A DNA stretch of 64,000 nucleotides. Origin: Candidatus Solibacter sp. (GTDB lineage Bacteria > Chloroflexota > Dormibacteria > DASZGP01). Below the pieces are notes generated by a model. The model was not told where the DNA came from and did not search any database. It was given only the letters and a program-made list of their open reading frames with translations. The position numbers were made by a program, and so were the translations under genes. The DNA lies in the NCBI GenBank assembly GCA_035569605.1, contig DATMMS010000005.1, positions 355,262 to 419,261 of the forward strand, written 5' to 3'. The stretch's first letter is position 1. Every line of letters starts with the position of its first letter. Of this stretch, positions 22,155-49,740 are shown one piece after another.

Positions 22155-23162
22155 ATGCGGCGTCGCGGTTTACACTGCCGTTCGGTGGTCTCTTCCTCTA
22201 CGCGTCTCCAAGACCAGGTGTCGGCGTTCCTCGAGCACTGCGAGATCGATCGCAACCTCTCGCCGCTGACTGTGCGCATGTACGCGCAGTACCTCGGCGC
22301 GTTCGGCGCATGGGCCGCCGCCGAAGGCGTCACCAGCGCCGAGCAGATCACCCCAGAGGTGGCCCGGCGCTACCGCGTCCACCTCAACCGATACGTGTCG
22401 CCGGTCACCCGTCGCAACCTCTCGCGCGGGACCCAGACCTCGTACCTGGTGGCGCTGAGGTCGCTGCTCCGCTTCCTGAGCCGCTCCGGAGAGGACACCA
22501 TGGCCGCCGATCGTGTCGAGCTTGGCAAGAGCGGCGGTCGCAGCCTCAAGTTTCTCGACTCACACCAGGTGGCGCGCCTGCTGGCGTCGGTCGACGCCAC
22601 CGACGAGCCTGGGATGCGCGATCGGGCCATCCTCGAGCTGCTGTTCTCGACGGGGCTGCGGGTCTCCGAGCTGGTCGGACTGGATCGCGAGCAGGTCAAC
22701 CTGGAGAGCCGCGAGTTCTCGGTCATGGGCAAAGGTCGCAAGGTCCGCGTCGTCTTCGTCAGCGACGAGGCGGCCGACGGGATCCGCTCCTACCTGTCGA
22801 TGCGAAAGGATCGGTTCAAGCCGCTCTTCATCCGCTACCGCGGCCACGCCGCCGAGCAGGAGACCCCCGGCGGGCGCGCCGCCATGGACGGCGAGGCCTG
22901 GCGTCTGAGCGCCCGGTCGGTGGAGCGCATGGTTGCCAAGTACGTGCGGCTGGCGGGGCTGGGCGTCAAGGCCACGCCGCACACGCTGCGCCACAGCTTC
23001 GCCACCGACCTGCTCTTCAACGGCGCCGACCTGCGTTCGGTCCAGGAGATGCTTGGGCACGCCAACCTCGCGACCACCCAGGTGTACACGCACGTCACCA
23101 ACCCGCAGCTGCGGGCCGTGCATCGCGACTTTCACAGCGGCAACCGCCGCCGTGGCGACTAG
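22155..23162 (+). CDS. Tyrosine site-specific recombinase, XerC/XerD type
   Basis: C-terminal catalytic block LRHSFATDLLFNGADLRSVQEMLGHANLATTQVYTHV; N-terminal SAM-like domain; true start may be in-frame GTG at 22185. Confidence 0.85.
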   Translation: MRRRGLHCRSVVSSSTRLQDQVSAFLEHCEIDRNLSPLTVRMYAQYLGAFGAWAAAEGVTSAEQITPEVARRYRVHLNRYVSPVTRRNLSRGTQTSYLVALRSLLRFLSRSGEDTMAADRVELGKSGGRSLKFLDSHQVARLLASVDATDEPGMRDRAILELLFSTGLRVSELVGLDREQVNLESREFSVMGKGRKVRVVFVSDEAADGIRSYLSMRKDRFKPLFIRYRGHAAEQETPGGRAAMDGEAWRLSARSVERMVAKYVRLAGLGVKATPHTLRHSFATDLLFNGADLRSVQEMLGHANLATTQVYTHVTNPQLRAVHRDFHSGNRRRGD

Positions 23163-23199: not shown

Positions 23200-23511
23200 T
23201 CAGCCTCTTATCTGGACCGCCGGCTGGACCTGTAGGCGCACCTTGCTGAAGCAGTCGTTGCAGTAGACAGGCCGCGATTCCCGCGGCTCAAACGGGACCT
23301 GTGTCGTGGTCCCGCACTCGGCGCAGATCACGTCATACATCCGTCGTGATCCCTGACGCTGAAGGCGTTTGGCGGATCGGCACTGCGGGCATCGCTGGGG
23401 CTGGTTCAGCAGGCCCTTTTCCTGGAAGAAACTCTGCTCACCCGCCGTCCATACGAAGTCGGCAGAGCAATCACGACACCTCAGCGTCACGTCCTCGAAT
23501 CCCATCGGCAC
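23200..23511 (-). CDS. Zinc-ribbon protein with four CxxC pairs (hypothetical)
   Basis: 103 aa; CRDC...CPQC...CAEC...CNDC. Confidence 0.6.
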   Translation of the reverse strand: MPMGFEDVTLRCRDCSADFVWTAGEQSFFQEKGLLNQPQRCPQCRSAKRLQRQGSRRMYDVICAECGTTTQVPFEPRESRPVYCNDCFSKVRLQVQPAVQIRG

Positions 23512-44535: not shown

Positions 44536-47500
44536 GTGCCTGACGGCGTCGACCGCGTCGCTGGGGCTGACCACACGAACGCGGAATCGACCGACGAGGA
44601 TGAATTCTCTGTCCCGACGGGCGATCCCGAGCAACTGCTGAGCGTCCTCTTCACCGACCTCGTCGGCTCGACCGAGCTGTCGGGCCGGATTGGCGATGCC
44701 GAGTCGGCGGAGTTGATGGAGGAACTCAACGGGCTGCTGGCGCGTCAGTTCGAGCGATTTGCTGGTCGTGTCGTGAAGAGCACCGGCGATGGTTTCCTGG
44801 TGACGTTCACCTCGGTTCGGAAGTCGATCGCCTGCGCGCTGGCGATCCAGCAGGCGATGGCGGAGCGGAACCGCCGCCGGGCAGGCCAGCCACTCACGAT
44901 CCGCATCGGCATCAACGCCGGTGAGGTGTCGATCGGACGCCACGACGTGCACGGATCAGCCGTCAACGCCGCCGCCCGGATCGTGGACAAAGCCGAGCCG
45001 GGAGAGGTGCTGGTATCGGAGACGGTCAAGCAGCTTGGCGGCAGTACATCGGGAATCGAGTTTTCCGACCGCGGCCGGGTGCGACTCAAGGGCTTCGAAG
45101 ACCGCTGGCGCGTTTACCGCGTCTGCCTCACAGAGGACGCCGCATCCACGGCGCCCGTGGTGCCGGCGCGAACAGCGTTCGTGGGCCGTGAGCAGGAGAC
45201 GGCGGCTCTTACGCGCAGGCTCGAGCTGGCGCTGGGCGGCCAGGGCGGGCTGGTGATGATCGGCGGCGAGCCCGGTGTGGGCAAGACCCGGCTCAGCAAG
45301 GAGCTCGCGGCGATCGCCGCCAAGCGGGGCATGCGCGTCCTCACCGGCCACTGCTACGAGACCGCAGGCACCCCTCCATACGTTCCCTTTGTCGAAATCC
45401 TGGAGACCAGCCTGGTCGAAGCCGGCGCCCAGGGGTTCCGAGTGGCACTCGGTGAGGGCGCGGCCGAGGTGGCCCGCATCATGCCCGAGCTGCGACGAGT
45501 CTTCCCGGATCTTCCCCCACCGCTGCAACTCCCTCCCGAGCACGAGCGTCACTACCTGCTCAACAGCCTCACCGGCATCGTCACCCGTGCGGCTTCGCGC
45601 GGTCCGCTGCTGATGATCGTCGAGGATCTACATTGGGCCGACGAGCCCACCCTGCTGCTGGTGCAGAACCTCGCCGAACGGCTGGTCGACGCCCCCGTCC
45701 TGATCGTGGGCACTCATCGGGACAGCCACGTCGACATCGGCGAGCCGCTGACCCGAACCCTGGAAGCACTCCACCGGCGGCGGCTGGTCCACAGGATGGC
45801 TCTCAAGGGACTCGACCGTGAGGGCGTCCGGGCCATGCTTGTGGCCCTCGCCGGGCAGCAGTTTCCCGAAGGCCTGGTGGAGTCGATATTCGACGAGACG
45901 GAGGGCAACGCCTTCTTCGTCGAGGAGGTGTTTCGGTTCCTGGTCGAAAACGACCGGCTGTACGACCAGTCGGGCCGGTTCTTCGACGCAATCGCGCTGG
46001 GCGAGCTGGACGTGCCCGAAGGCGTGCGGCTGGTGATCGGCCGCCGCCTGGAGAACCTGAACGCCGAGGATCGTGAATCCCTGGCCGCGGCTGCGCTGAT
46101 TGGCCGGTGGTTCAGTTTCAAGCTGCTCCAGGAAGTGGCCGACAGTGACGCCGACACGCTCCTTGACGGGATCGACAAAGCCGAGGCGGCCGGACTGTTG
46201 GTGCCGTCGACCGAGGCCGGCCAGGCGCGTTTCAGCTTCGCCCACGAGCTGATAAGGCAGACATTGGTGACGGGGCTGTCGCCGGCTCGACGGCAGCGAA
46301 TCCATCTCCGCATCGCTGACGCGCTGGAGCGTATGCATTCGGACAACATCGACAACCGGGTCGCTGAGATCGCCCACCACCTCGCCAGCGCGGGCGAAGC
46401 CGCCGAGGCCGAGCGGACCGCGGGGTACCTGGTGCGCGCCGGCGATCGGGCGCTCGGCGCGGCAGCCTTCGAGGACGCCCTGCGGCTGTACGAGCAGGCA
46501 GTCGCGATTCTGCCCCCAGACAGTCCCGCGGGGGCCGACGCGCGGAGGCAGCTGGGTATGGCCCAGCGCTGCCTCGGGCGATGGGACGAGGCGATGGCGT
46601 CCTGGGAGCTGTGCCTGGCGACCTATGAGCGTCTCGGCGACGCCGACGCCATCGGGCTGCTCTGCCGGATCGCCGCCATTCAGCTGTCCTGGCAGGCCCG
46701 ATTCCGAGACGCCCTCCACCTGGCTGCCAAGGGACTGGCGGCGCTGGGCGAGCGGTCGACTCCCGACCGTGCCCGCTTGATGTGCTTCACCGGTGGCACC
46801 ATGTCGCTTGCCGGCGACGCCGCCCAGGGCGAGATGATGACCACCGAGGGAACCCGGATCGCGACCGAGCTGAACGAGCCCGGAGCGATCGCGTACGCGA
46901 TGTACATCCGCACCGTGCATCTCTTCGCATCGATGCGCTACCCCGAGGCGGTCGCGGTCGGCACCGCCGCCGAGCCGCTTCAACTGGCGATCGGCAACGC
47001 CTGGGACCTGGCCAGCCTCAAGGCGCACATCGCCCAGTCGCAGCTGGGCATGGCGGCCTTCGAGGACTGCGAAGCAACCGCTGACGCACTGGCCGAGCTG
47101 GCGGGGCGGATCAGCCACCTGGGGGCTTCGATGTACGCGCCGCGCCTGCGCGCTTCGATCGCCTTCATGCGCAGCGGCGACATATCGGCCTGGCGCCGGT
47201 TCGCCGAGGCGGACCTCGACTTCATGGACAGGCACGACCTTCCCCTGATCGCGGACTGCAGCACCTATCTCGGCCTCGCCGATTTCTGGGCCGGCAGCTG
47301 GGACAGCGCCCTGGAGCTGATGAGCACCGGCGTGGCCGGCGAACGGCCGGGGGCGATCGGGGGCAACGGGGCGATCCTGGCCGTCTATCAGGCCTACGCG
47401 GGCGACCTCCACGAGGCGCTGGCCCTGGTGGACACCCACGCCGGCCGGCGGCCGGTTCATGGGGCGCTCAGCGGACGCGGCGCCTGGACCGAGCTGTTCT

Positions 47501-47880
47501 GCGACGTGGAGACGCTGGCCGTCGCCGGTGAGCACGCCAGGGCAGCCGAGCTCTACCCGTTATTGGCCGAGGCCCTCGCGTCCAGGGTCGTGATCAGGCC
47601 TCTTGACTCGCGCCTGATCGAAACCCTGGCCGGCATAGCCGCGGCCTCGGGCGAGGACTGGCCGGCGGCAGCTACCCATTTTGAGACGGCCATCAGGCTG
47701 GCAGCCGAACTTCCGGCAAGACTGGAGGCCGCCGACGCCCGCCGCTTCTACGCCTTGATGCTCGAGACCCAGGGAGCGCAGAGCTCACTGGAGAAGGCGC
47801 GGCAGCTCCGGGCTGAGGCGCGCGACATCTACCTGTCGATGGAGATGCCCCGCCACGCTGAGATGGTGGCGGGGCCCTAG
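44536..47880 (+). CDS. Multidomain protein: class III nucleotidyl cyclase domain + P-loop NTPase (AAA_16/STAND-like) + TPR-like helical repeats
   Basis: 1114 aa; cyclase blocks FTDLVGSTE / KSTGDGFLVTF / HGSAVNAAARI; Walker A GGEPGVGKT, Walker B-like LLMIVEDLHWAD; long helical C-terminus; GTG start with AAGGTAG RBS. Confidence 0.85.
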   Translation: MPDGVDRVAGADHTNAESTDEDEFSVPTGDPEQLLSVLFTDLVGSTELSGRIGDAESAELMEELNGLLARQFERFAGRVVKSTGDGFLVTFTSVRKSIACALAIQQAMAERNRRRAGQPLTIRIGINAGEVSIGRHDVHGSAVNAAARIVDKAEPGEVLVSETVKQLGGSTSGIEFSDRGRVRLKGFEDRWRVYRVCLTEDAASTAPVVPARTAFVGREQETAALTRRLELALGGQGGLVMIGGEPGVGKTRLSKELAAIAAKRGMRVLTGHCYETAGTPPYVPFVEILETSLVEAGAQGFRVALGEGAAEVARIMPELRRVFPDLPPPLQLPPEHERHYLLNSLTGIVTRAASRGPLLMIVEDLHWADEPTLLLVQNLAERLVDAPVLIVGTHRDSHVDIGEPLTRTLEALHRRRLVHRMALKGLDREGVRAMLVALAGQQFPEGLVESIFDETEGNAFFVEEVFRFLVENDRLYDQSGRFFDAIALGELDVPEGVRLVIGRRLENLNAEDRESLAAAALIGRWFSFKLLQEVADSDADTLLDGIDKAEAAGLLVPSTEAGQARFSFAHELIRQTLVTGLSPARRQRIHLRIADALERMHSDNIDNRVAEIAHHLASAGEAAEAERTAGYLVRAGDRALGAAAFEDALRLYEQAVAILPPDSPAGADARRQLGMAQRCLGRWDEAMASWELCLATYERLGDADAIGLLCRIAAIQLSWQARFRDALHLAAKGLAALGERSTPDRARLMCFTGGTMSLAGDAAQGEMMTTEGTRIATELNEPGAIAYAMYIRTVHLFASMRYPEAVAVGTAAEPLQLAIGNAWDLASLKAHIAQSQLGMAAFEDCEATADALAELAGRISHLGASMYAPRLRASIAFMRSGDISAWRRFAEADLDFMDRHDLPLIADCSTYLGLADFWAGSWDSALELMSTGVAGERPGAIGGNGAILAVYQAYAGDLHEALALVDTHAGRRPVHGALSGRGAWTELFCDVETLAVAGEHARAAELYPLLAEALASRVVIRPLDSRLIETLAGIAAASGEDWPAAATHFETAIRLAAELPARLEAADARRFYALMLETQGAQSSLEKARQLRAEARDIYLSMEMPRHAEMVAGP

Positions 47881-47889
47881 GATCCGGCT

Positions 47890-48168
47890 TTAGCCTTCTC
47901 TTGAGAGCCGCGCGGCGACCAGCGCCCGCAGCGTCTCGATTTCGCGTCCGACGGTGTCCAGCTCACCCTTCAGGCGGTTGGCCTGGCGCGCCGCCTTCTC
48001 GGCGGCGACCTTGGCCTCCTCCCCGGCCGAAGCCAGGGGCGCCTCTTTGATGGTTCGCTTCAGCTGCTGAGCCAAGCGGTCGTAGGTCGGGGTGAGAAGC
48101 TCGATTCGCCTGCGCAATGCCGACACCTGTCCCGGCATCAGGACCTCATCCACTCCCCGGCTATTCAC
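47890..48168 (-). CDS. Hypothetical small coiled-coil protein
   Basis: 92 aa; start overlaps csp stop by 4 bp. Confidence 0.4.
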   Translation of the reverse strand: MNSRGVDEVLMPGQVSALRRRIELLTPTYDRLAQQLKRTIKEAPLASAGEEAKVAAEKAARQANRLKGELDTVGREIETLRALVAARLSREG

Positions 48169-48515
48169 TGAACGTCGCTGTGCTCGGCTTCTGCCTCTTC
48201 GGCGGCGGGCTCCTCTTGGGAGGCCTCTGCCTCGGCTGCGGGGGCTGCATCGGCGGCGGTGGTCTCGGCAGCAGGAGCTTCGGCCACGGGAGCCGGGGCC
48301 GGCGCGGCGGCGGGAGCACCCTGGCTGACTCGAACCTGGGCGGCCCGGGGTCCCTTGGGGCTGTCCTCGACATCGAACTCGACGCGCTCGTTGCCTCGTA
48401 GTGAGTCGAAGTTTTCGATGGCGCTGCGGTGGAAGAAGTACTCCTTCCCGTCTTCAGCCGTGATGAATCCGAATCCGCGGTCGGACACGAGTTTCTTGAT
48501 GGTTCCGGTGGTCAT
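48165..48515 (-). CDS. Cold-shock domain protein (CspA family) with acidic Ala/Glu/Pro-rich C-terminal tail
   Basis: KKLVSDRGFGFITAEDGKEYFFHRSAI RNP motifs; ATG 48515 (MTTGTIKK); about 50-aa low-complexity tail. Confidence 0.85.
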   Translation of the reverse strand: MTTGTIKKLVSDRGFGFITAEDGKEYFFHRSAIENFDSLRGNERVEFDVEDSPKGPRAAQVRVSQGAPAAAPAPAPVAEAPAAETTAADAAPAAEAEASQEEPAAEEAEAEHSDVQ

Positions 48516-48681
48516 TTCTTGCTCCTCTTTCTCGAACTGGTCTGCGGGCCGGCGACGAAATGTCCGAGAAAGGCGATGAGCACCGCAGGAGTCGCCACGA
48601 CGGCGACACATCTAACCATATACCCTCGGTATCGCGGTTGCCGGTCCCAGCAGGGAACCGTTCGCTTGGGGTAGGATCGCG

Positions 48682-49740
48682 TTGGCGCCTGTGAGTCGCC
48701 TTTGGCGGCCGGGCTGCGGGATCGCCCTGGGCGCCGCTCCTTCCACTTCAGGAGGACAAATTCTGCGCTTTCGCATAGGGCTACTGGCTGTCGTGGCTGC
48801 GTTCTCCGTGCTGTCCACTACGACCGGCCTGGGAGCCACGGCTGACTCCCTCGCCGCCCTGGCGGCGCAGCGGCAGGCCCTGCAGGCCCAGGCGAACAGC
48901 GTCCTGGGGCAGCGTCAGACCACTTTGTCGCGGCTGCTGCAGACCAAGGACCTGCTGGCCACGCTTCGAGGGCAGCTCGATCAGAACGCCTCGAAACTGG
49001 CCGAGCTGCAGTCTCAGCAGGAGGACTTGAGAGCGGGAATCGAGGCCACCAGCGCCCACATGCAGACCGACCGCGACCTGCTCGCCGGAATCGTCCGCCA
49101 GCAGTACAAGACCCGAGGCGACAGCAAGCTGTCCCAGATCCTTTTCGATTCCTCGAACCTGAGCCAGATTGTCGATCGCATCGTCGCCACAGAGGCCATC
49201 AGCAGCCGTGCCCACGACCTGATTGTCGAGCTCCGGGTGGAGCAGTCGACCCTCAACAGCCAGTCCGCCGCGCTGGCCGCAAAGCAGGCCGAGGCCAACC
49301 GGCTCAGGGATCGCCTGACGGCGCAGAAAAAGCAGGTCCAGGCGGTCGCCGCCGACTACCAAACGCAGGTCGATTCGATGGACGCCAACGCCCAGGCGCT
49401 ACTGGCGCGAATCAAGGCAATCGACGCGGCAATCGCGGCCCTGACCTCGCCCCCTTCGGGGGGCCGCCAGTACACCCAGCAGCAGATCATCGCCATCATC
49501 AGGGGAGCGGCGGCCCAGTACGGCGCCAACGGCGACCAGATGGTGCGGGTCGCCCGCTGCGAGTCGAGCCTGAACCCGTACGCCTACAACCGGAGCTCTG
49601 GCGCTTCGGGTCTGTTCCAGTTCATGCCCGGCACCTTCTACGGCAACGGCGGGCACAACATCTGGGACCCCACCGACCAGTCGGATGTCGCCGCCAAGAT
49701 GTTCGCGCGGGGCGACTCCGGGGCCTGGAGCTGCAAGTAG
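48682..49740 (+). CDS. Secreted coiled-coil protein with C-terminal transglycosylase-like domain
   Basis: N-terminal anchor, long Gln/Ala-rich helical region, C-terminal GASGLFQFMPGTF block. Confidence 0.65.
   Translation: MAPVSRLWRPGCGIALGAAPSTSGGQILRFRIGLLAVVAAFSVLSTTTGLGATADSLAALAAQRQALQAQANSVLGQRQTTLSRLLQTKDLLATLRGQLDQNASKLAELQSQQEDLRAGIEATSAHMQTDRDLLAGIVRQQYKTRGDSKLSQILFDSSNLSQIVDRIVATEAISSRAHDLIVELRVEQSTLNSQSAALAAKQAEANRLRDRLTAQKKQVQAVAADYQTQVDSMDANAQALLARIKAIDAAIAALTSPPSGGRQYTQQQIIAIIRGAAAQYGANGDQMVRVARCESSLNPYAYNRSSGASGLFQFMPGTFYGNGGHNIWDPTDQSDVAAKMFARGDSGAWSCK

Follow-up and report, generated by a model that had tools for sequence, protein, structure and literature searches.

Why does a cold-shock protein (Csp) carry a long acidic extension, and why does its stop codon overlap the start of a second, smaller gene? 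The question is raised by a csp gene and the 92-codon open reading frame behind it (ORF92) of a soil bacterium from the uncultured Dormibacterota group, in a 64 000-nucleotide (nt) stretch of contig DATMMS010000005.1 (assembly GCA_035569605.1, positions 355 262 to 419 261), here called the window. Coordinates are window positions unless a locus is given. Both genes lie on the minus strand, csp first and ORF92 second. The reading favoured here, which is held tentatively, is that the acidic tail would tune the cold-shock domain (CSD), that a helical bundle made by ORF92 would work with the small binder encoded upstream of it, and that the csp leader would control csp translation. Related loci (L numbers) came from exact-protein look-ups and from scans with an ORF92 alignment, run on GTDB species genomes and on JGI metagenomes. 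Structures were predicted with AlphaFold2 (AF2). The features of the pair are the following.

48165..48515, minus strand: csp gene, ATG at 48515, 116 codons and a TGA stop (48167..48165).
47890..48168, minus strand: ORF92, GTG start at 48168..48166, 92 amino acids (aa).
48165..48168, minus strand: GTGA overlap of the csp TGA with the ORF92 GTG, identical in all csp-linked loci whose junction was read.
48327..48509, minus strand: cold-shock domain (residues 3-63), from the Pfam CSD match, the AF2 model and matches to Csps in the PDB.
48168..48323, minus strand: acidic Ala/Glu/Pro tail (residues 65-116), from composition and AF2-predicted disorder.
48168..48194, minus strand: C-terminal tip AEAEHSDVQ, the constant tip of the ORF92-linked clade.

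A preliminary description of the locus had the csp stop overlapping the start of a helical 92-aa ORF, and this was borne out: the two genes are adjacent and overlapping, and both are real genes. The GTGA junction was read in the sequences of L001, L006-L011, L013, L015 and L021. The gene table of L022 gives the same csp-ORF92 arrangement, which brings the related metagenomic loci to 11. ORF92 is under purifying selection at the codon level. Its codon positions 1 and 2 are 0.85-0.98 identical to the window and position 3 is 0.49-0.80 identical, so ORF92 evolves as a protein. The position of its start was checked on one further segment.

48139..48168, minus strand: first ten ORF92 codons (MNSRGVDEVL), upstream of an internal ATG at 48138, marked by third-position differences.

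Compared with L012, L014 and L021, the window differs in these codons at the third position (AAT/AAC, CGG/CGT, GTG/GTA/GTT, GAT/GAC, GAG/GAA and CTG/CTC), and the peptide VDEVLMPGQ is retained in the distant loci L002-L004, whose ORF92 homologues are 44-47% identical. Differences confined to third positions, together with the persistence of the peptide, indicate that the ten codons are translated and therefore that translation of ORF92 begins at the overlapping GTG or close to it. No Shine-Dalgarno (SD) sequence was found before this GTG in any context, in the -30 regions of the junctions that were read. Given the overlap, termination-reinitiation coupling to csp is therefore the most likely mode of ORF92 translation, and the two genes would belong to one transcription unit.

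The domain assigned by the preliminary description to the CspA type matched Pfam CSD (PF00313) over Csp residues 3-63 with an E-value of 2.7e-17 and 62.9 bits (cutoff 27). Csp sequences of the PDB were matched with E-values down to 1e-10, and E. coli CspA shares 47% identity with the CSD. The AF2 model, built from a 40-sequence alignment, predicts a five-stranded barrel of the OB-fold (oligonucleotide/oligosaccharide-binding fold) type, with strands at residues 2-10, 15-20, 25-29, 44-52 and 55-63 and a predicted local distance difference test score (pLDDT) of about 90. E. coli CspA and CspE share the Pfam domain, the GFGFI RNP1, the Phe and His of RNP2 and the predicted barrel. RNP1 is intact in the window Csp (RGFGFI). 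The RNP2-like motif is YFFHR, in which Phe and His are kept and Arg replaces the last Phe of the consensus V-F-V-H-F. At the position of the beta1 aromatic pair, W11/F12 in E. coli CspA, the window Csp has K8/L9. CspA and CspE are also single-domain proteins of 67-70 aa, whereas the window Csp adds a tail of 52 aa. The NCBIfam CspA/CspE equivalogs (NF049933, NF007679 and others) gave at best 59.5 bits, far below their cutoff of 120. By these scores, therefore, the window Csp is a CSD protein of a divergent subfamily and not an orthologue-level CspA or CspE. This subfamily is common in Dormibacterota, Chloroflexota and actinobacterial metagenome-assembled genomes (MAGs). Considering what is known of the family and the motifs present, the domain would act as a chaperone of RNA or single-stranded DNA. 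A CSD effector of the retron Se72 type, for which a neighbouring reverse transcriptase and an msr/msd RNA would be expected, was also considered and rejected: the match was a generic CSD match (NF038236, 42.5 vs 82 bits; PADLOC CSD_V), the neighbours are a cyclase-AAA-TPR gene, an SLT transglycosylase gene and ALDH, and no Rfam RNA lies in 47500..49000.

The low-complexity acidic tail noted beforehand is genuine. Its sequence, QGAPAAAPAPAPVAEAPAAETTAADAAPAAEAEASQEEPAAEEAEAEHSDVQ, holds 12 D/E, 22 Ala, 7 Pro and no K/R in 52 residues. AF2 gives a pLDDT below 50 across residues 67-109, i.e. predicted disorder, and the score climbs to about 60 at the extreme C-terminus. Conservation among orthologues had been proposed as a check. 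The acidic composition and a tip of the form AEAE[HP]SDVQ were found to be conserved, whereas sequence and length vary. Tails range from 13 to 66 residues (clade plus one outlier) and differ by indels and by duplications of the units EEAPA, ADEPA and AEAPx. At L007 and L008, where ORF92 is 100% identical to that of the window, the tails have 56 and 62 residues against 52; the tail is therefore the fastest-evolving part of the operon. Nearly every long-tail variant of the ORF92-linked clade ends in the constant tip AEAE[HP]SDV[QP], whatever the drift elsewhere in its tail. The last csp codon must end in G to form the GTG; the preceding tip codons are not explained by an SD. Judging from these variants, the tail is conserved as a property, namely acidic composition and tip, and not as a sequence or a length.

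Such variation could also arise without function. The tail might be neutral low-complexity DNA generated by slippage in GC-rich repeats. Its disorder would let it be tolerated, and the need for the csp stop to overlap the ORF92 start would be the sole reason for its reading frame being kept; csp and ORF92 would then share an operon and not a function. This explanation is rather unlikely in our estimation. It fits the duplications of 5-aa units (EEAPA, ADEPA) and a weak 18-nt tandem repeat at 48186..48233 in the tail DNA, the variation in sequence and in length (13-62 aa), seen even between loci with identical ORF92, the tail-less state of most Csps of the same subfamily and the separate occurrence of tail and ORF92 (L020, L012). 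It does not fit the charge. Twenty distinct tail variants, pooled, hold 1 K/R and 252 D/E in 925 residues, and D+E is 27% in every variant; the background in three neighbouring window proteins is 9.6% K+R and 12% D+E. The scarcity of Arg despite its GC-rich codons, in DNA whose alternative frames are Arg-rich, argues for selection on negative charge rather than for pure slippage. Conservation of the tip amid drift also counts against neutrality, as does a similar acidic tail that seems to have arisen independently at L020. There a Csp (P0037, beside cytochrome bd genes) carries an (AEAPx)n tail with no ORF92 downstream, and therefore looks like a separate acquisition.

If the tail does tune the CSD, it would do so as a tethered polyanion. 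By competing with nucleic acid for the surface on which the domain binds, it would curb non-specific binding and make release faster, as in Hfq. The AEAE[HP]SDVQ tip would be presented as a docking motif. Acidic C-termini also occur in SSB, T7 gp2.5 and T4 gp32. Hfq is the closest parallel drawn here: a small nucleic-acid-binding core bears a disordered tail whose acidic tip mimics nucleic acid, competes with it on the core, autoregulates RNA binding and tunes selectivity and release (PMC5606850). The two differ in that Hfq is an Sm ring and the Csp an OB-fold monomer, and in that the Csp tail is acidic throughout and not at the tip only. Searches of the open-access literature found no description of a bacterial Csp with an acidic Ala/Glu/Pro tail, and none of Dormibacterota Csps, which is weak evidence. 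Some tailed Csps (L010 352..729, L015 1795..2157; also P0021 and P0022) carry a His-rich insert, SHEGHDHEGHDH, inside the acidic tail. It is absent from the window and is a potential metal-binding motif.

The ORF92 product had been called a coiled-coil protein. The helical character stands, and the AF2 model (pLDDT 84; helices at residues 4-42 and 50-91) describes it better as an antiparallel alpha-hairpin, which is basic (net charge +4, isoelectric point (pI) 10). Searched exhaustively with a HMMER profile, 1.84 billion representative proteins yielded 11 members of 83-117 aa, and a word-indexed search of 5.8 billion protein clusters returned 12 relatives. Those with a named source come from Dormibacterota MAGs, one being labelled Chloroflexota. 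No Pfam, NCBIfam, PHROG or PADLOC family was matched, apart from sub-threshold coiled-coil matches. By these searches ORF92 belongs to a tiny orphan family found almost only in contigs labelled Dormibacterota. The family was defined here by a length of 80-117 aa, an N-terminal VDEVLMPGQVxxLRRRIELLxP and a C-terminal EIETLxxLVxARL, all present in ORF92; P12 G13 Q14 V15 and E76 I77 E78 T79 L80 are invariant in the alignment. A match in a Helicobacter MAG (L005; 24 ORF92 residues at 60% identity, with an E-value of 5e-5 that refers to candidate stretches only) was set aside as a spurious coiled-coil resemblance. Rosetta-stone fusions of the hairpin to a CSD or to a zinc ribbon were sought among the family representatives; none exceeds 117 aa, and therefore none is fused.

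The preliminary description held the tail extension to be unusual for a Csp. It is so relative to typical Csps of 67-70 aa; extended Csps are nevertheless known, since M. tuberculosis CspB (MtbCspB; Rv0871, PDB 9xw3) has in its crystal structure a CSD, a disordered linker and an alpha-hairpin that dimerizes as a four-helix bundle, and binds small RNAs with high affinity (PMC12840758). The MtbCspB dimer is thus a two-headed RNA binder. The order CSD, long flexible segment, alpha-hairpin is the same in the window, but there a translationally coupled gene of its own encodes the hairpin, as a 92-aa protein and not as a C-terminal domain. The counterpart of the linker is 52 aa long and strongly acidic, unlike that of MtbCspB, and the MtbCspB hairpin, at 52 residues, is shorter than that of ORF92 by about 40. 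By analogy only, the operon reads as a split version of the MtbCspB design. ORF92 would self-associate into a helical bundle and cooperate with whichever small binder is encoded upstream, and the pair would be a non-covalent counterpart of MtbCspB.

A covalent product could still be made if a programmed -1 frameshift near the end of csp fused CSD, tail and hairpin into an MtbCspB-like polypeptide. ORF92 does lie in the -1 frame relative to csp, that frame extends openly for 95 codons ahead of the GTG in the window, and the fused architecture exists in MtbCspB. In seven other loci, however, the frame reaches back only 9-12 codons from the GTG before it is closed, no slippery heptamer of the form X XXY YYZ was found in any tail, and none of the family members (83-117 aa) is a CSD-hairpin fusion. 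With a separate ORF, no frameshift signal and no fused homologue, a covalent CSD-linker-hairpin protein of the MtbCspB type is hardly credible here.

The most telling result concerns the gene ahead of ORF92. The orthologous locus has the order ALDH, SLT transglycosylase, a variable slot, ORF92. The SLT gene of the window is as follows.

48682..49740, plus strand: SLT transglycosylase gene, divergently transcribed from csp.

In five loci (L002, L003, L004, L016 and L023) a zf_Tbcl gene lies directly upstream of the ORF92 homologue, with a gap of 6-12 nt. Its product, of about 103 aa, combines zf_Tbcl (PF13451, E-value 1.6e-21) and zf_Tbcl_2 (PF23477/TIGR04272, CxxC-x17-CxxC, E-value about 3e-20) through a poly-Gly linker and is basic (net +4). 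At the orthologous locus the slot was found in three states. It holds the zf gene at L016, where a divergent SLT gene is followed by zf and then by the hairpin gene, and where the SLT flank alone is shared. It holds csp in the window clade. It is empty at L012 and L014, where ALDH, SLT and ORF92 (77-78% identical) are kept. Read from gene order, therefore, one small putative nucleic-acid binder has displaced another ahead of the same hairpin gene. Members linked to zf occupy several deep branches of the ORF92 family, and for this reason zf was probably the ancestral partner. The csp leader was considered as a homologue of the zf-gene leaders and rejected, only the SLT-proximal part of the intergenic region being common to L016. 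The csp promoter and leader thus have no counterpart upstream of the zf genes, from which it follows that csp arrived with its own control region. The zf_Tbcl proteins (PF13451, PF23477, TIGR04272) resemble the Csp in occupying the same operon slot, in being of similar size (about 103 aa) and in having two modules and a flexible linker. They differ in having an unrelated fold and in being basic and not acidic. The one property shown for them is zinc binding, by small CxxC-x17-CxxC proteins, in Methanosarcina homologues (PMC12704099).

A bolder version of the favoured reading would make the ORF92 family a Dormibacterota-specific cofactor that oligomerizes and recruits at least two small RNA-binder modules via the acidic tip. 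We regard it as improbable. The zf_Tbcl protein would dock by a surface equivalent to the Csp tip, and the complex would be a multivalent RNA chaperone built non-covalently, a split version of MtbCspB. If this were true, the exchange between zf_Tbcl and CSD in one place would be a natural experiment in which two folds are functionally interchangeable within a complex, and zf_Tbcl proteins would receive their first functional assignment.

The same comparison bears on two further explanations. The first would make the operon a toxin-antitoxin-like module, its acidic first product (pI 4.4) neutralizing a basic second one (pI 10). Gene order, sizes, charge asymmetry and the 4-nt overlap, which is typical of type II toxin-antitoxin operons, fit this idea. 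Against it, at least four loci have a solitary ORF92 homologue, the five zf loci have a basic upstream partner (the zinc-ribbon protein, net +4), and the locus shows synteny and not mobility. No toxin or antitoxin family of PADLOC, Pfam or NCBIfam was matched, so that the recognizable family, the obligate pairing and the mobility expected of a type II system are all absent. Such a module is highly unlikely. The second would link the function of ORF92 to the divergent SLT/PcsB-like cell-wall hydrolase, for example as its cytoplasmic regulator or assembly factor, with csp or zf as a passenger. The SLT gene does adjoin in the window clade, L012, L014 and L016, and the SLT protein and ORF92 are both rich in coiled-coil-like helices. 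The gene tables of L017 and L024 hold no SLT, however, and a tblastn search with the window SLT protein found none in L002-L004, L017 and L024. It is to csp or zf, and not to SLT, that ORF92 is tightly coupled, by the GTGA overlap or by gaps of 6-12 nt. This role for ORF92 is accordingly quite improbable in our view.

The third part of the favoured reading concerns the csp leader, for which the following features were annotated.

48516..48681: divergent intergenic gap between csp and SLT, 166 nt, non-coding.
48516..48610, minus strand: csp 5' leader of about 95 nt, from conservation, its 5' end placed from the -10-like box.
48616..48624, minus strand: -10-like box GGTATATGG, GGTATA(T/A)GG in nine aligned leaders and in L021.
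48522..48529, minus strand: Shine-Dalgarno sequence AAGAGGAG, 6 nt before the csp ATG, invariant in the leader alignment.
48562..48572, minus strand: anti-SD arm CUUUCUCGGAC, paired with GUUCGAGAAAG in minimum-free-energy and consensus folds.
48527..48537, minus strand: SD-side arm GUUCGAGAAAG, running into the SD and paired with CUUUCUCGGAC.
48591..48607, minus strand: 5'-proximal hairpin GUCGCC-loop-GGCGAC, from the folds and from one-sided G-C/G-U and U-A/U-G changes.
48542..48588, minus strand: candidate alternative helix CUGCGG (48588..48583)/CCGCAG (48547..48542), which encloses the anti-SD and excludes the anti-SD:SD helix.

A leader of 166 nt had been proposed from the gap before csp. 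The gap exists, but it is shared with the divergent SLT gene, and the conserved leader is shorter, about 95 nt. The -10-like box lies about 105 nt upstream of the csp ATG, and the sequence downstream of it is nearly invariant across nine loci. A consensus sigma-70 scan did not call this box, which was found only by conservation across loci. Positions -105..-1 are 78-94% identical to the window, above third codon positions of the same loci (55-83%) and DNA further upstream (59-76%), which indicates purifying selection on the leader of about 95 nt. The alignment was extended to 11 sequences by adding L021, the tailed csp of L020 and the tail-less csp of L018. In it, 95.9% of the cells of the anti-SD:SD helix are paired. 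The whole structure is paired at 92%, versus 45-51% with slid partners, six pairs show a double change, and 0/500 shuffles reached the observed value. UGCUC also pairs with GAGCA in the leader fold. Opening of the SD region was computed to cost 12.4 kcal/mol at 37 °C. The CUGCGG/CCGCAG helix forms in the fold of an 80-nt transcription prefix and in a fold with the SD forced open, and its arms are invariant in the close loci. Its presence in the prefix makes a kinetic switch conceivable. The leader would thus control csp translation via the anti-SD:SD helix and the competing upstream helix, and would permit temperature-dependent or Csp-dependent control.

The leader had also been likened to those of cold-regulated csp mRNAs. 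What holds of this is the purifying selection and the predicted SD-sequestering helix; resemblance to the enterobacterial leader does not hold. An Rfam scan of 47500..49000 on both strands (E-value of at most 1) matched no family, the cspA thermoregulator included. The E. coli cspA mRNA thermosensor is likewise a long conserved csp 5' untranslated region with alternative structures that involve the ribosome-binding site (PMC9947658 for the concept). It is about 160 nt long, against about 95 nt here, and matches the window leader in neither sequence nor structure. The csp leaders of L018 (1868..1978; tail-less csp beside SpoVS and ClpB) and L020 (2880..3003; tailed csp beside cytochrome bd genes) share with the window the core CUCGRA...GUUCGAG(A/G)A..GGAG and the 5' hairpin. 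This common core points to a family of csp leaders, widespread in this phylum, that Rfam lacks.

Several results weigh against the favoured reading. No homology is detectable between ORF92 and the MtbCspB hairpin: the candidate relationship (residues 84-135) had an hhalign probability of 1%, and the ORF92 profile did not match 9xw3 among PDB sequences at an E-value of 10 or less. All ORF92 family members are basic whatever their neighbours (net +2 to +5, pI 9.7-11.1), so their charge does not track the presence of an acidic tail. The hairpin gene has no upstream binder at L012 and L014 and is found alone, in other contexts, at L017 and L024, so that an upstream binder is not strictly needed in cis. 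Nucleic-acid binding by the zf_Tbcl proteins is an assumption. Tail and hairpin gene are separable, given that the csp-ORF92 pair is coupled with an acidic tail of only 13 residues at L021 and L022 and that L020 has a long tail and no ORF92. As for the leader, its helices are nearly invariant in the close loci and the double changes come from two distant sequences, alignment and structure were both derived from the window sequence, and the z-score of the single-sequence fold is only -1.5. Equilibrium folding also gives more SD pairing at 5 °C and not less, so that the window leader is predicted to be more occluded in the cold, contrary to the cspA thermosensor.

Further observations were made around the locus. 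The product of the cyclase gene (44536..47880, plus strand) is a STAND-like signalling protein of 1114 aa that combines an adenylate/guanylate cyclase domain with an AAA_16 ATPase and TPR repeats. The gene and ORF92 converge, only 9 nt separate their stop codons, and no terminator was predicted between the two. A consensus promoter and terminator scan gave no calls. The SLT protein (48682..49740, plus strand) has a coiled-coil region and an SLT/Rpf-like transglycosylase domain, a PcsB-like architecture. At the SLT end of the intergenic region (48641..48690), a block GATCCTAC...CTGCTGGGAC is common to the window and L016; it may be the promoter or leader of the SLT gene itself, or its true 5' coding end. 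The zf genes of L002 (3456..3658), L003 (3465..3667) and L004 (3471..3673) are preceded by a conserved region of about 200 nt of their own (for example GCCGGTGGTCGTTAGGTCGACGG...CAGAGGTACCCAGTTTG). This region may form a structured leader, with no relation to that of csp. A stand-alone zf_Tbcl paralogue lies elsewhere in the window (23200..23511, minus strand). It has 103 aa with paired CxxC motifs and is 50% identical to the zf protein of L016, a basic linker RLQRQGSRR replaces the poly-Gly, and no hairpin gene follows. It is convergent with a 335-aa ORF (22155..23162), which looks like a XerC-type recombinase. A protein identical to the window Csp (P0013) is present in public MAGs and is labelled by NCBI as from a 'Candidatus Solibacter sp.' MAG (Acidobacteriota). 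The named related loci are Dormibacterota and, in one case, Chloroflexota, and the Acidobacteriota-type label of the source contig is therefore probably a binning or taxonomy mislabel.

Csps are among the most studied bacterial RNA chaperones, and what is known of them comes almost entirely from single-domain proteins of 67-70 aa. The csp-ORF92 locus is a lineage-specific variant of this well-known protein family, joined to an uncharacterized family of small proteins. Current understanding is not overturned; the value of the locus is that of a comparative-genomics lead, and specialists would not be surprised by it. A lineage of an uncultured phylum has added to its Csp a long polyanionic tail, predicted to be disordered, with a conserved tip; it would be a tuning solution in the style of Hfq and SSB. 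The csp leader, being unrelated to the enterobacterial one, is useful for asking whether RNA-based control of csp evolved repeatedly. Association of the orphan ORF92 family with two unrelated small putative nucleic-acid binders offers a testable handle on both ORF92 and zf_Tbcl, and the exchange of csp and zf_Tbcl in one slot provides a concrete hypothesis for two uncharacterized families.

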